Source: Escherichia phage Ayreon. Taken from it: a stretch of 44,708 nucleotides of DNA. Numbering within the stretch: position 1 is the stretch's first letter; every line of letters starts with the position of its first letter. Below the pieces are notes generated by a model. The model saw only the letters and a program-made list of their open reading frames with translations. It had not been told where the DNA came from and did not search any database. The DNA is taken from sequence record MF807953; one strand, given 5' to 3'. Positions 31,936 through 38,434 of the stretch are shown piece by piece. The translations under genes were made by a program, and so were the position numbers.

Positions 31936-32298
31936 TTAACGACCTGCTGCGCGGAGTTTTCCGTCAGGTTCACCGGCAAGAGTCAGTAATTGTCCCTGGT
32001 CTTCCTGCAGAATAGTCAGGCGACCACCGCGATTGACATACATCGGCGTTTCGGTGGTGTCTTCTTCGGAAATTTTCCCGCGGTTAGTCGGGCGAACATA
32101 TGAGAGTTTGTGTTTGATTTTTACACGGTTCTCATCAAACGGTTCGATTTCCAGGTTGAGCGAGACCTTACCTTTGGTTTTCGTGTTCATCACACCGGAA
32201 GCGACTTCACTGAGAACAGCGCCGATTTTGGTTTCAAATACGCCGCCGTCCAGCTCCCCGATAAATGCCTGCACATCAGTACTGCGTTCGCTAGCCAT
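31936..32298 (-). CDS. Hypothetical early protein (first gene of leftward operon)
   Basis: Start MASERS chosen because of a strong GAGGAG ribosome-binding site 6 nt upstream; the six-frame ORF extends further upstream without one. Confidence 0.55.
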   Translation of the reverse strand: MASERSTDVQAFIGELDGGVFETKIGAVLSEVASGVMNTKTKGKVSLNLEIEPFDENRVKIKHKLSYVRPTNRGKISEEDTTETPMYVNRGGRLTILQEDQGQLLTLAGEPDGKLRAAGR

Positions 32299-32345
32299 TT
32301 TGCTGCTCCTCATCATATCGACCCTGCAAGGTCGGTTGGTTTCTC

Positions 32346-32435
32346 CACAAAACAGAGAAGAACACCTGCGGTGGCAGCCGCCCGGATGGATTGGGTTATG
32401 AGCCCGTCGTCCGGTGATGCCCTTCTCTGTTTTGT
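32346..32435 (-). other. Structured leader element (14-bp perfect inverted repeats flanking about 61 nt)
   Basis: acaaaacagagaag at 32347-32360 and its exact reverse complement cttctctgttttgt at 32422-32435, immediately upstream of the first leftward gene's ribosome-binding site. Confidence 0.4.
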
Positions 32436-32898
32436 AAAAAGAGCGGTACCAGCCGGAAGCAAGTGTACAAACTGGTACCGCCAAAGCAGTGGCTGTTGTG
32501 GTGGGGTTGTCACTCAGGCGTATGGTCAACCTGACAATCCGGTGTCCTCAACGGGGAAAGAGTAACCCCGCCATACTTACCGCCGCGCCATTTCGCGGAT
32601 TACCACAACGCTGAGAGCACTTAGCCAGTTACGGCACCACACTTTGTCGCGGTTCCATAAATGCCCTCATCGTTGCACCCTGGTCTCTTCCCAGGCGTCA
32701 AACCGGATCGCCACGCTGGTTAGGCGTCTTATCAGCATCATCATTGACTTGCACATTCCGGCTACCTGGTTTGTTTGCCCGAGCAAGGAGTGGATTGTCC
32801 CCTTTAACGTCCCCAGACCGCTAACGACGCATGTGCCATACGCCGTGTTACAACCAAATTTAGTTTAATCTTGCCTGTGTTATGTTTCTTTTAGATAC

Positions 32899-32926
32899 AT
32901 TATGTATCTCAAGGGTACATTGTCAA
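32899..32926 (-). promoter_or_regulatory. Candidate pL-like early leftward promoter with overlapping palindromic operator
   Basis: Minus strand reads TTGACA - 16 bp - CATAAT directly downstream of the cI terminator; the 17-bp palindrome agatacattatgtatct (32893-32909) overlaps the -10. Confidence 0.5.
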
Positions 32927-32929
32927 GTA

Positions 32930-32953
32930 TAAAAAAACCTGCCGAAGCAGGTT
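32930..32953 (-). terminator. Rho-independent terminator after cI
   Basis: Minus strand hairpin acctgc-ttcg-gcaggt followed by a U7 run, 12 nt after the cI stop. Confidence 0.7.
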
Positions 32954-32964
32954 ATAAATATTGA

Positions 32965-33639
32965 TTAGGCCTTTATTTTGTATCTTCTTGGTTTTCCCGA
33001 GAAAATCACTGTACCAATTATAGAGCAATTACCGTTAATCTTAATGTAAGGCTCAGGCCAGTTTGGGTTTAATGCTTTGAGATAACGCTGTGTTCCATCT
33101 TCTATCAATCGCTTGAAGGTGGTTTCGCCTGTATCGTGCATCAATGCAATAACGTCGTCACCGTGGCAGGCAGGGACTTCGGGATCAACAAAAATCATGT
33201 CTCCAGGGCGGTACTCATCAATCATTGAATCACCAATCACCCGCAAGATATAAGTCATTTCGCCACAGGGTACAGGGCAGGGGTAAGTTTCTGCTGTGCT
33301 CAAATCAACCTCAGAATAGCCAACTTCTTTCCATGCTCCGGCCTGTACCCATGATATGACAGGGACTAACGTTATTTGTTTGTTAGTGATTGAAACATCA
33401 GGTTTTTTTGTGATGTTCGTGGTCTGGTGTTCTTGATCAAGCCATCCGACAGGCAGGTCGAAACATTTTTCGATGTGCCGCGCCATGCTGTCACCGATAT
33501 TTTTAGTAGCACCATCTCCCATAAACCTGCTGGTCTGGGTTGGCTCGCGATCAATCATGGTGGCAAAGGAAGAATTCCCGCCAACACCATCTCTCAGTTT
33601 TCTGGCGTTAGACCGCCGGATGTCATGGATTGTTTTCAT
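32965..33639 (-). CDS. cI: CI-like repressor (HTH plus S24 LexA-type autopeptidase domain)
   Basis: 224 aa; N-terminal HTH region, C-terminal S24 features (GDSM serine motif and a downstream Lys in FKRL); divergent from the cro-like gene. Confidence 0.85.
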   Translation of the reverse strand: MKTIHDIRRSNARKLRDGVGGNSSFATMIDREPTQTSRFMGDGATKNIGDSMARHIEKCFDLPVGWLDQEHQTTNITKKPDVSITNKQITLVPVISWVQAGAWKEVGYSEVDLSTAETYPCPVPCGEMTYILRVIGDSMIDEYRPGDMIFVDPEVPACHGDDVIALMHDTGETTFKRLIEDGTQRYLKALNPNWPEPYIKINGNCSIIGTVIFSGKPRRYKIKA

Positions 33640-33961: not shown

Positions 33962-34525
33962 ATGAGGCTAACCGTGGGTAAGTATCACTGGAAAGTAGAA
34001 AAACAGCCTGAGTGGTACGTGAAAGCTGTCAGAAAAACTATCGCAGCGTTGCCGGGTGGTTACGCTGAAGCAGCTGACTGGCTGGATGTAACAGAGAACG
34101 CATTATTTAACCGCCTTCGTGCCGATGGCGATCAGATTTTCCCGCTGGGATGGGCAATGGTTTTACAGCGCGCGGCTGGCACTCACTACATTGCGGATGC
34201 TGTCGCACAGTCTGCTGGTGGGGTGTTCGTATCGCTTCCTGAAATTGAGGAAGTAGAGAACGCCGATATAAACCAGCGCCTGCTGGAAGTCATCGAACAG
34301 ATCGGGAATTACTCAAAGCAGATTCGTTCGGCAATCGAAGATGGGGTCGTGGAGCCACACGAGCAGACAGCAATTAATGATGAGTTGTATCTGTCAATTT
34401 CGAAGCTCCAGGAGCATGCAGCACTGGTCTACAAAATCTTTTGCGCTCCAGAAAAGAGTGACGCCCGCGAGTGTGCAGCTCCGGGCGTCGTGGCGTTTTG
34501 TGTCTGTGGAGAAACTAACGCATGA
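33962..34525 (+). CDS. Early regulatory protein (YdaT/CII-like)
   Basis: 187-aa ORF immediately after cro in the CII position; similarity to the YdaT family is from memory. Confidence 0.45.
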   Translation: MRLTVGKYHWKVEKQPEWYVKAVRKTIAALPGGYAEAADWLDVTENALFNRLRADGDQIFPLGWAMVLQRAAGTHYIADAVAQSAGGVFVSLPEIEEVENADINQRLLEVIEQIGNYSKQIRSAIEDGVVEPHEQTAINDELYLSISKLQEHAALVYKIFCAPEKSDARECAAPGVVAFCVCGETNA

Positions 34526-35358
34526 ACAGTTTAACGGCAAATAACCGTTTGTCGCAACAGCTGGTGGTCAGCGTCGCTGAACACCTGTTGTTACGGCATG
34601 AATGCAGATTACCAAATCACCTGGCTGTAAGTAACCACAGAGAACTTTACCTGACTGTGGGGGGCGAGTTGTGCAAGAACTTAACCGCTGGTTTCGTGAC
34701 GGAAGAGGGCTTTATGTCCATGTTATTCGTTGGGAGCCAGAAACACAGCGCGTTATCTATCTTCGCAAAGACTACCCGCATGAGTGCTTTAGTCCTTTGT
34801 GGAAATTCAGGCGTGATTTTGTTGAGTGTGAAGGACCACCAGCACATTGATTCTGCCATTCCGGGACGTTACACTGTTCAGGCACCTTATAAAGCGGGTG
34901 TCGGGATTGGCGTCCTGGAATTGCATACGGCGACAATTGGCGCGTTAGCGTCTTTTTTGTTGCTACAACTCAGCTATACCCAAATTATGGTGGGCTGGGT
35001 GGGGGCACCGAAAGGTGCGCCGGTTTCCGTATGCGCCGGTTACGCCAACCCTGCTCAGTTCACCACCAGCGAAATTGGCGTTTCCGGTGGTGGAAGTTAT
35101 CCATTGCATACGGAGGCTGCCATCATGGCTACTGTCCCAGCCCTCTCTCGTCTGAATGATGAAGACTTACATAAACTCAGTTATGTAACAACTGCACTAC
35201 GTGCTCTGCGCAAGGTAACTCTTTCGGATCCGCAGGCGCATCAGGTTTTGGTAGAAACCCTTCTTAACTTGCAGGCTGAACGTATTCGTCTGGCGGATAA
35301 GGCTAATTTTCATATTCACCGTCTCCTGAATATCAGCGGAGGGCATCGTCATGCTTAA
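34522..35358 (+). CDS. Hypothetical early protein (278 aa)
   Basis: ORF overlapping the upstream stop; no Walker motifs seen. Confidence 0.5.
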   Translation: MNSLTANNRLSQQLVVSVAEHLLLRHECRLPNHLAVSNHRELYLTVGGELCKNLTAGFVTEEGFMSMLFVGSQKHSALSIFAKTTRMSALVLCGNSGVILLSVKDHQHIDSAIPGRYTVQAPYKAGVGIGVLELHTATIGALASFLLLQLSYTQIMVGWVGAPKGAPVSVCAGYANPAQFTTSEIGVSGGGSYPLHTEAAIMATVPALSRLNDEDLHKLSYVTTALRALRKVTLSDPQAHQVLVETLLNLQAERIRLADKANFHIHRLLNISGGHRHA

Positions 35359-37624: not shown

Positions 37625-38434
37625 ATGAATAATCTGATGGTCATTGATGGTATTGAAGTTCGTCGTGATGCTTATGGACGTTATAGCCTGAACGATCTGC
37701 ATCGCGCAGCAGTAGCATCTGGTGCAAATGCCAGAACCAAGGAGCCAGGAAAGTTTCTTTCCAGCCAACAAACTGTTGAGCTTGTTCATGAATTGACCAA
37801 CACCCAGAATTTGGGTGTTGACCCGGTGAGTGTGATTCATGGGGGAAATGAACGGGGAACGTATGTCTGTAAGGAACTGGTGTATGCCTATGCAATGTGG
37901 ATCAGCCCGTCATTCCATCTGAAGGTGATCCGTACTTTCGATATGGTAACCAGCGCACCGGAAAAATTATCCGGGCAGGCTGCTGACAAGATGCAGGCTG
38001 GAGTGATTCTGCTGGACTTTATGCGCAGGGAGTTAAACCTGTCTAACTCATCTGTGCTTGGGGCCTGTCAGAAACTCCAGGAGGCTGTTGGCTTACCGAA
38101 TCTGGCACCGCGTTATGCCATTGATGCTCCTGCTGACGCGCCTGATGGCTCAAGCCGCCCCACGCTGTCACTGAGTGCACTGCTGAAGCAGTATGGTATC
38201 CGCCTGACGGCTAATCAGGCATATCACCAGATGGCGAAGCTGGGGATCGTCGAACAGCGCGAACGATACAGCCGTACAGCGATTAACAACATCAAAAAAT
38301 TCTGGTCGCTGACAGCGAAAGGCTGCATGTTCGGCAAGAACATCACCAGTCCCGCAAATCCGCGCGAGACGCAGCCGCATTTCTTCGAATCCCGATTCCC
38401 TGAGCTGTTAAAGCTGCTCGATACCGTTCATTGA
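37625..38434 (+). CDS. KilA-N domain protein (antirepressor-like)
   Basis: 269 aa; N-terminal IDGIEVRRDAYGRYSLNDLHRAA... typical of the KilA-N DNA-binding domain. Confidence 0.6.
   Translation: MNNLMVIDGIEVRRDAYGRYSLNDLHRAAVASGANARTKEPGKFLSSQQTVELVHELTNTQNLGVDPVSVIHGGNERGTYVCKELVYAYAMWISPSFHLKVIRTFDMVTSAPEKLSGQAADKMQAGVILLDFMRRELNLSNSSVLGACQKLQEAVGLPNLAPRYAIDAPADAPDGSSRPTLSLSALLKQYGIRLTANQAYHQMAKLGIVEQRERYSRTAINNIKKFWSLTAKGCMFGKNITSPANPRETQPHFFESRFPELLKLLDTVH

Follow-up and report, generated by a model that had tools for sequence, protein, structure and literature searches.

Four conserved structured RNA modules in the pL leader of a lambdoid prophage, one of them a pseudoknotted RNA found across phages of the Enterobacterales

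Introduction

The put RNAs of the lambdoid phages HK022 and HK639 act without phage proteins, by binding RNA polymerase (PMC9378689). HK022 put works in cis, through the beta' zinc-binding domain of the polymerase, and suppresses pausing and termination. We describe here the leader of the presumed leftward early (pL) transcript of Escherichia phage Ayreon (sequence record MF807953), for which put is one of the closest described counterparts. The whole stretch analysed, hereafter the window, is lambdoid prophage DNA of 44,708 nt (44.7 kb), and the leader is read on its minus strand, to which all leader features below belong. Four conserved, strand-specific RNA modules, each of them structured, succeed one another along the pL leader: A, B, D (a DicF-like terminator hairpin) and C, from 5' to 3'. 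The first of them, module A, is a structured, pseudoknotted RNA found across phages of the Enterobacterales. Like module A, the put RNAs (HK022 putL/putR and HK639) are cis-encoded and structured, and lie just downstream of pL in lambdoid phages without N; the putL-like RNA of HK639 has a copy in the left operon only, as in the phage of the window. The HK022 put RNAs are ~70 nt long with two stem-loops, whereas module A has a core of ~170 nt (~255 nt with its 3' hairpin, P6), four helices and two proposed pseudoknots, and also adjoins tRNA genes in non-lambdoid phages.

Other described systems share parts of this arrangement. Module A holds the slot of lambda nutL, that of the first transcribed element of pL, but the phage of the window differs from the lambda nutL/N system in that neither an N protein nor a boxB-type hairpin was found in it. 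The dicBF leader of the Qin prophage has in common with the window the order of module B, a DicF-type hairpin and protein genes reached by read-through; it lacks modules A and C, and the Qin unit follows ydfABC whereas that of the window stands directly behind pL. The ban operon of phage P1 (dicF-like region, tRNA-Asn/Thr/Ile, ban) likewise brings modules of these kinds together in a single early operon under repressor control, with a B-type hairpin annotated as 'dicF-like region' and module A between tRNA-Ile and ban. The order differs from that of the window, module A is not promoter-proximal, and real tRNAs are present. Stable phage RNAs are a further point of reference: the species 1 and 2 RNAs of T4 are co-transcribed with phage tRNAs, and the C4 RNA of P1/P7 and the M3 RNA of phi80 are processed by RNase P. 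Like module A, these are structured non-coding RNAs in phage early or tRNA units. They are released by host RNases, for which module A is a candidate substrate, and we saw no sequence relation between them and module A.

Results

The pL leader consists of four structured modules

The leader spans ~595 nt between a presumed transcription start near 32892 and the ATG at 32298 that opens the first early-left gene, and holds short, unconserved open reading frames (ORFs) only. This bears out the original prediction, made from the sequence of the window, of about 590 nt without a convincing ORF. Folding of the minus-strand transcript had been proposed as a check on that prediction, and the 596-nt leader does fold better than 100 of 100 shuffled sequences (z = -4.3). 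Sensitive BLAST searches against phage genomes split the leader into blocks common to unrelated phages. This modular homology had been missed, as had the terminator with a 10-bp stem at 32481-32436 and, 5'-most in the leader, its best-conserved element. The original prediction had centred on an inverted repeat near the ribosome-binding site of the first gene; the repeat is a real element (module C), and the stronger one is the overlooked pseudoknotted module A at 32857-32603.

Module A is a covarying, pseudoknotted RNA

Module A starts ~35 nt past the presumed pL start. Its core (32857-32674) scores 144 bits (E = 3e-45) with our covariance model, R1, and comprises the helices P1 (32845-32841 with 32829-32825), P2 (32821-32814 with 32769-32761), P4 (32727-32724 with 32716-32713) and P5 (32695-32691 with 32683-32679). 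Two pseudoknots are proposed. PK1 would join the loop of helix P1, GCACAU (32836-32831), to AUGUGC (32756-32751), which is contained in the near-invariant 19-mer GGUAGCCGGAAUGUGCAAG (32766-32748). PK2 would join the P4 loop AACC (32721-32718) to GGUU (32704-32701), and other copies have CACC in the P4 loop with a downstream GGUG.

Covariation was scored for helices P1, P2, P4 and P5 and for PK2 in an alignment of 34 diverse copies. These elements were paired in 97.8% of cells, with 12 pairs changed on both sides. No shuffle out of 500 reached the observed score, and when the 3' partners were slid along the alignment as a control, pairing fell to 26-45%. Many of the pairs are G-U, which identifies the minus strand of the window as the strand that is folded and transcribed. 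The 19-mer GGUAGCCGGAAUGUGCAAG was exact in 20 of the 21 species found through an independent anchor. Because PK1 is invariant it cannot be tested by covariation, and we regard this pairing as plausible. RNAalifold offered an alternative in which GCACAU and AUGUGC form a nested helix and helix P1 is dropped. Since P1 covaries (positions 17:29 are AU in 17 copies and GC in 17), we did not adopt this alternative as the main fold, but retained the pairing as a possible pseudoknot.

The 3' extension of module A is the long hairpin P6 (32675-32603), whose basal helix pairs CAACGAUGAGGGCAUU (32675-32660) with AAGUGCUCUCAGCGUUG (32622-32606). Per-sequence folding of 17 distinct variants gave hairpins of 47-208 nt in which the basal helix is conserved and the apex hypervariable. 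In some variants (loci L096 and L133) the apex contains the canonical tRNA T-arm sequences GCGGUUCGAUUCCGC and GGGGUUCGAUUCCCC, which hints that P6 may enclose tRNA-derived or tRNA-like inserts. As a separate observation, the 5' strand of helix P1, CGGCGUAUGG (32845-32836), is complementary to the loop of the third hairpin of module B, CCAUACGCCU (32524-32515), and the minimum-free-energy fold of the whole leader pairs the two, which could reflect an alternative long-range pairing or chance.

Module A occurs in a quarter of complete Escherichia coli genomes and in several genomic contexts

About a quarter of the complete E. coli genomes (1376 of 5426) carry module A, and it is annotated in none of them. 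A 16-mer from its core was found in at least 120 viral contigs. A survey of one genome per species, using a different anchor followed by a covariance-model filter, gave 23 true matches, nearly all of them in Enterobacterales, among them Escherichia, Citrobacter, Klebsiella, Kosakonia, Phytobacter, Kluyvera, Enterobacter and Erwinia. Some 33 chance matches in unrelated phyla, from a genome-wide pattern scan, were removed by the covariance model. The best-scoring copy (185 bits) lies on a 1.7-kb contig labelled as a Bacillota metagenome-assembled genome (L183), which is almost certainly a mis-binned enterobacterial phage fragment.

At most lambdoid loci a cI-like or short helix-turn-helix (HTH) repressor gene on the same strand ends 80-140 nt ahead of the start of the module A core. 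The repressors belong to at least seven immunity types, both S24-peptidase cI types (218-251 aa) and short HTH types, and the next gene follows 355-866 nt further on. In these phages transcription from pL thus reaches module A before any other element. The setting is different in P1-like phage-plasmids: within the ban operon, which C1 controls, module A follows tRNA-Ile2 at a distance of 2 nt and stands just ahead of ban. The copy in phage P1 is 78% identical and is not annotated. The epsilon15-like phages (Uetakevirus) have a promoter, module A, tRNA-Arg(UCU), starting 4-60 nt downstream of module A, two strong terminators and then an ORF. In the phiV10-type arrangement the Shine-Dalgarno sequence of this ORF abuts the second terminator, with no intervening promoter predicted.

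In some leaders the ~40 nt after the module A core hold a small hairpin together with a boxA, UGCUCUUUAACAA, that matches the rrn type perfectly (L085, 3335-3375; also L042 and L028). The rrn-type boxA thus stands just after module A in L085-type leaders and is absent from this place in the window. A search for boxA enrichment after module A returned just 2 of 122 contexts, so we claim no general association of module A with boxA; the 16 boxA matches of the upstream control proved to be one homologous coding site.

The mosaic make-up of the leader, in which modules are gained and lost between close relatives, and the presence of tRNA-like fragments would both be expected if the leader were evolutionary debris, left behind by decayed tRNA genes and morons and now without a function. 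We consider this very improbable, since compensatory changes maintain the helices of modules A and C (support for module B is weaker, with 4 pairs changed on both sides), the 19-mer hardly varies between Erwinia and Escherichia, and module A has the wide occurrence in E. coli given above.

Module A matches no curated RNA family

Rfam 15 (4227 models, with riboswitches, ribozymes and EAR expected among them) was searched at the gathering score over the whole window and at E <= 10 over 32150-33050. On the transcribed strand there was no match between the promoter and the first gene, even at E <= 10, and among 20 related loci Rfam found only tRNAs and DicF. No tRNA was found in the window by ARAGORN, and there was no match to the tRNA model RF00005. 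The four-way junction of module B and the anticodon-like arm of module C, both described below, are therefore resemblances to tRNA only.

Similarity to put was sought in HK022 and HK639. A BLAST search with 122 module A variants as queries returned nothing from HK022 (24.0-30.1 kb), and R1 found nothing at E <= 10 in HK022 (24.0-40.7 kb). With filters off, R1 gave no match at the annotated putL in the 33.0-38.5 kb region of HK639, where the best scores elsewhere were ~5 bits or less. The HK639 putL-like RNA (NC_016158, 34187-34312, minus strand, 126 nt) shares with module A, as judged by eye, just a P1-like stem (ACGGCG...CGUCG) and the string GGAAGAG. With no R1 match in HK022 or at HK639 putL, module A is placed outside the put family. 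The same HK639 record (L128) has an 'M3-like RNA' annotated just after cII, at 37910-37969, a further small structured RNA of a lambdoid early operon.

We found no paper or annotation that names module A, including by text searches for its sequences, and it may be present as an unnamed entry in a catalogue of 10,006 viral candidate RNAs, ~8,500 of them unnamed (PMC10690425). Two preprints, on the Pas small RNA and on Minerva, proved unrelated. Module A matches no curated RNA family; modules B and D we group with the dicBF leader found in prophages of the Qin type.

No N gene, conventional nut site or hidden coding sequence was found

The original prediction had failed to find a small Arg-rich N-like protein in the early region, and our searches agree. 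PHROG scans of the early genes gave no N-like protein, the matches being cI, cro, cII-like, O-like and YfdP/Q/R-like only, and an ORF scan between 28 and 36 kb found no small Arg-rich ORF. The left operons of Stx2a_1447 and mEp460, each annotated from cI to int, contain no N gene, and N is not annotated as the first pL gene in the related phages examined. The leader contains no boxB-like 15-nt hairpin. Its sole boxA-like string, CGCUCUUUUUA, forms the 3' shoulder of the terminator and overlaps its tail, and is not kept in SfV. A conventional N gene with nut sites, the discovery of which would have spoken against an RNA element, was not found in this interval.

N proteins are highly divergent, so a family search could miss one, and some records have ORFs annotated over the leader; an unrecognised N analogue or other coding sequence might then lie hidden in the interval. 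We regard this as extremely unlikely. The annotated ORFs are unconserved or, as with the 'hypothetical proteins' of some records, on the opposite strand, and no Arg-rich small ORF or N family match was obtained. A small ORF inside module A was considered and rejected as unconserved: its ATG frame meets a stop after 11 codons in the window and, by reading of the alignment, after ~40 codons in other variants. The variable hairpins of module A also differ irregularly in length among homologues, a poor fit to a conserved frame, and the substitutions follow the pattern of RNA helices.

Modules B and D resemble the dicF region of Qin

Module B (32609-32493) is a cloverleaf-like RNA with a four-way junction, made up of an 8-bp closing stem, a hairpin CCGCG/CGCGG, a variable hairpin and a hairpin GGAUUGUCA...UGACAACCC with a conserved 19-nt loop. 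Its pairs are kept across variants. It is ~92% identical to an unannotated stretch directly 5' of dicF in the Qin prophage of K-12, a homologue stands 5' of dicF in PPompW prophages too, and its third hairpin matches the P1 'dicF-like region'. Module B begins with GUGG, as does the tRNA-Arg that occupies the same place in epsilon15-like phages. In K-12 (NC_000913, ~1649250-1649380) the module B homologue lies within the 340-nt gap between ydfC and dicF, which carries no annotation, and has the 3' half of a helix like P6, GUGCGCUUCCGGUUGUGG, in front of it.

Module D (32481-32436) is a DicF-like remnant that constitutes an intrinsic terminator: a stem of 10 bp without mismatch (GCGGUACCAG/CUGGUACCGC) encloses a loop of 19 nt and is followed by UCUUUUU. 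This strong terminator is placed between pL and every early-left gene. Module D aligns with the 3' two-thirds of DicF; the 5' 20 nt of DicF are missing and the loop differs. DicF-type variants follow module B in many prophages, and the Rfam DicF model (RF00039) finds DicF in the PPompW prophage at 76.7 bits, a positive comparison, but has no match in 32150-33050 even at E <= 10. Module D is a divergent DicF-type hairpin outside the DicF family by the Rfam criterion, and any targets of module D would accordingly differ from those of DicF.

The sequence of a pseudoknotted fold, invariant junction nucleotides, a 5' leader position and a downstream terminator is also that of a ligand- or tRNA-sensing riboswitch-like element, or attenuator, in which module A would decide whether the terminator forms. 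The conserved UGGC and the ACCA-containing loop, read from the alignment, recall the pairing of a T-box with the 3' end of tRNA. We think this reading improbable. The distance to the terminator is ~190 nt from the module A core and ~120 nt from P6, so module A lacks an expression platform next to it, and we saw no alternative pairing between module A and the terminator. What follows module A also differs by context (module B, a tRNA, ban or boxA), with no consistent class of downstream gene.

The original prediction had offered a put-like antitermination RNA, an attenuator and a processed small RNA as possible forms of an RNA-based element. A processed small RNA gains from the homology of the 3' part of the leader to the pre-DicF/DicF region of K-12 Qin, and we found no evidence for an attenuator. 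The put-like proposal stands by position only, module A being first after pL in phages without N, and not by family, as no put match was obtained in HK022 or HK639.

Module C forms a long covarying helix before the first gene

Module C (32437-32345) is a Y-shaped RNA with a three-way junction, one arm of which has a conserved loop while the other is a variable hairpin. Its closing helix includes the perfect 14-bp inverted repeat (32347-32360 and 32422-32435) that the original prediction had singled out. Such a perfect 14-mer repeat within 150 nt is expected an estimated ~0.02 times in 44.7 kb. The repeat extends to 25 nt at 80% complementarity, or to 20-21 bp when G-U pairs are allowed, and is in fact part of a covarying helix of ~21 bp with one bulge. 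In 14 variants analysed with RNAalifold this helix showed compensatory changes (AU 7/CG 6, GC 8/CG 6 and others), and the repeat, whose lack of conservation would have told against it, is kept in related phages in this compensated form. The apical loop of the conserved arm, GACGGGCUCAUAACCCAAUCC (32388-32408), is itself conserved while its flanking stem covaries; the GGG/CCC stem and CUCAUAA loop of this arm resemble the anticodon arm of initiator tRNA.

RNase III sites of the lambda N-leader or T7 R-site type are near-continuous duplexes of at least about 20 bp within early polycistronic transcripts, and module C has such a duplex. Since the 21-bp helix stands just upstream of the first ribosome-binding site it resembles an RNase III site, and we propose that module C could be an RNase III-type processing element, or one that forms the 5' end, for the first mRNA. 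A copy of the module C loop, GAUGACGGGCUCAUAAUCCAAUCC, lies directly 3' of tRNA-Asn and upstream of the lysis genes in Klebsiella phage Chronis (L187, ~1200-1250), so elements of the module C type are linked to tRNAs outside the pL context too.

Promoter, immunity region and neighbouring RNAs

The region is ~99% identical to phage cdtI and to phages converting to Shiga toxin 2c (Stx2c). Directly upstream of the promoter is a cI/LexA-like repressor gene (33639-32965, minus strand; PHROG phrog_4, transcriptional repressor), which a terminator scan equips with an intrinsic terminator at 32953-32936 (minus strand). The pL-like sigma-70 promoter, TTGACA-16-CATAAT (32926-32899; TTGACA at 32926-32921, CATAAT at 32904-32899), had already been recognized in the original prediction together with the palindrome that overlaps it. 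It matches the consensus at 11 of 12 positions and was the top promoter-like site across 20-38 kb in a promoter scan. The perfect, operator-like 17-bp palindrome AGATACATTATGTATCT (32893-32909) overlaps the -10 hexamer and occurs once in the window; an imperfect palindrome reaches 32882-32920. Half-sites of the ATGTAC/GTACAT type, like those of AGATACATTATGTATCT, were also read by eye in the cI-cro intergenic region, which fits AGATACATTATGTATCT as a CI operator. At the other end of the leader is the first early-left gene, which is YfdP-like (31936-32311, minus strand; phrog_204), with a Shine-Dalgarno sequence GAGGAG at 32311-32306 ahead of its ATG.

The rightward early operon contains two further RNAs recognized by Rfam, an isrK-like RNA (34882-34958, plus strand; 58.9 bits) and, beside it, a C4 antisense RNA (34983-35070, plus strand; 80.7 bits). 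Both lie inside a predicted ORF of 278 aa (34522-35358), and related phages have an 'antirepressor' gene of 1149-1152 nt annotated at this position. The pair looks like an RNA-controlled antirepressor module of the P1/P7 immI type (c4-ant) or of the Gifsy-1 isrK type, and the 5' part of the annotated antirepressor ORF may be non-coding.

Discussion

We tentatively favour a reading in which module A would be a put-like antiterminator RNA that acts in cis and substitutes for N, and hold it at rather less than even confidence. On loss of the CI-like repressor, RNA polymerase would start near 32892 and transcribe module A first. Module A would fold on the nascent transcript, its invariant 19-mer and loops binding the elongation complex, and the complex so modified would resist the terminator at 32481-32436 and probably also Rho on the 600-nt untranslated leader. 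Module A would thereby fill the role of putL, or of nutL plus N. Complexes that do terminate would release an RNA of ~455 nt, which may be processed into module A, module B and a DicF-like small RNA, whereas in read-through transcripts the 21-bp helix of module C would be the cleavage site, probably for RNase III, and the cut would create the mature 5' end of the mRNA of the yfdP-like gene.

This cis-acting role is supported by the recurrence of module A at the pL slot across at least seven immunity types, and by terminators that stand between module A and the genes in two unrelated settings, the window and the phiV10-type phages. A predicted terminator also precedes the next same-strand ORF in 83 of the 122 distinct module A contexts. 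Some leaders with module A have a perfect rrn-type boxA right after it, and N is absent from the left operons of the window, Stx2a_1447 and mEp460. Module A also occupies the position typical of put, downstream of an early promoter in a lambdoid phage without N.

Several observations weigh on the other side. The antitermination step is drawn from position; module A has no similarity to put, and the leader gives no Rfam 15 match at E <= 10, a result that should cover EAR if Rfam includes that family. PK1 is invariant and its sole natural variant, at L133, breaks it. The count of terminators across the 122 contexts has no matched control, and along the left operon of the window the predictions include few other strong intrinsic terminators. 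In phage P1, module A lies 2.3 kb downstream of Pban, with no terminator between it and ban, and the succession of module A, tRNA and terminators in epsilon15-like phages could equally be an ordinary stable-RNA transcription unit. Finally, SfV has the same immunity region, pL, DicF-like terminator, module C and yfdP-like gene without the module A core or module B, and module A is therefore dispensable for SfV. In that phage (L188, 1150-2000) a moron (orf33, 98 aa, and a reverse ORF) stands in place of the module A core and module B. SfV keeps the hairpin that flanks the 5' side of module A in other phages, as well as the 3' end of P6, and so looks like a natural variant in which module A was deleted or replaced.

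The absence of module A from SfV is what would be expected of an accessory RNA, and nearly as likely as a cis-acting antiterminator is that module A, module B and the DicF-like hairpin are stable, processed RNAs that act in trans on a host target. They would be cut by RNase P, E or III like the neighbouring tRNAs, the terminator would merely end an RNA operon, and the downstream genes would rely on leaky read-through. Module A directly adjoins tRNA genes in two unrelated phage groups, the P1-like and the epsilon15-like. The cloverleaf-like module B, with the same GUGG start, takes the place of the tRNA in the window, and some P6 apices hold canonical T-arm sequences (GGUUCGAUUCC). The dicBF operon is processed by RNase E and RNase III, and module B and DicF belong to that processed operon. 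The invariant 19-mer could equally serve as a seed or a protein-binding site. On the other hand, no trans target or partner protein was identified, and in the contexts examined module A is always co-oriented with and upstream of protein genes, never free-standing before genes of the opposite strand. Nor would a trans-acting RNA need to recur in the promoter-proximal slot of so many immunity types.

If the cis-acting antiterminator role held in all its contexts, module A would join put and EAR as a third class of processive antiterminator that works as nascent RNA, one structurally unrelated to the other two, and it would reprogram enterobacterial RNA polymerase independently of phage proteins. 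It would then substitute for N in many lambdoid prophages (Stx2c, some Stx2a, cdt) and have been co-opted at terminators beside tRNA genes in P1-like and epsilon15-like phages. We put this generalization forward as a doubtful one, on balance somewhat unlikely.

Under either a cis- or a trans-acting role, a strongly covarying, pseudoknotted RNA of 170-255 nt is present in a quarter of complete E. coli genomes and is named by no annotation or Rfam family. It spans P1, the epsilon15-like phages and lambdoid phages that convert to Stx or cdt, and in these lambdoids, phages that have no N protein, it is the first product on prophage induction. An alignment, a structure and a covariance model are now available for module A, and the K-12 region upstream of dicF (module B) is itself a conserved structured RNA. 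Were module A a processed, trans-acting RNA, it would add to the few phage RNAs that are released alongside tRNAs. If instead it modifies RNA polymerase, it would represent a new and widespread solution to early antitermination. In Stx2c and long-tailed Stx2a phages the early regions are known to govern how much toxin is made (bioRxiv 10.1101/2024.03.06.583675), and module A would, in that event, be a determinant of the efficiency of induction, and hence of Shiga toxin output, in these phages.

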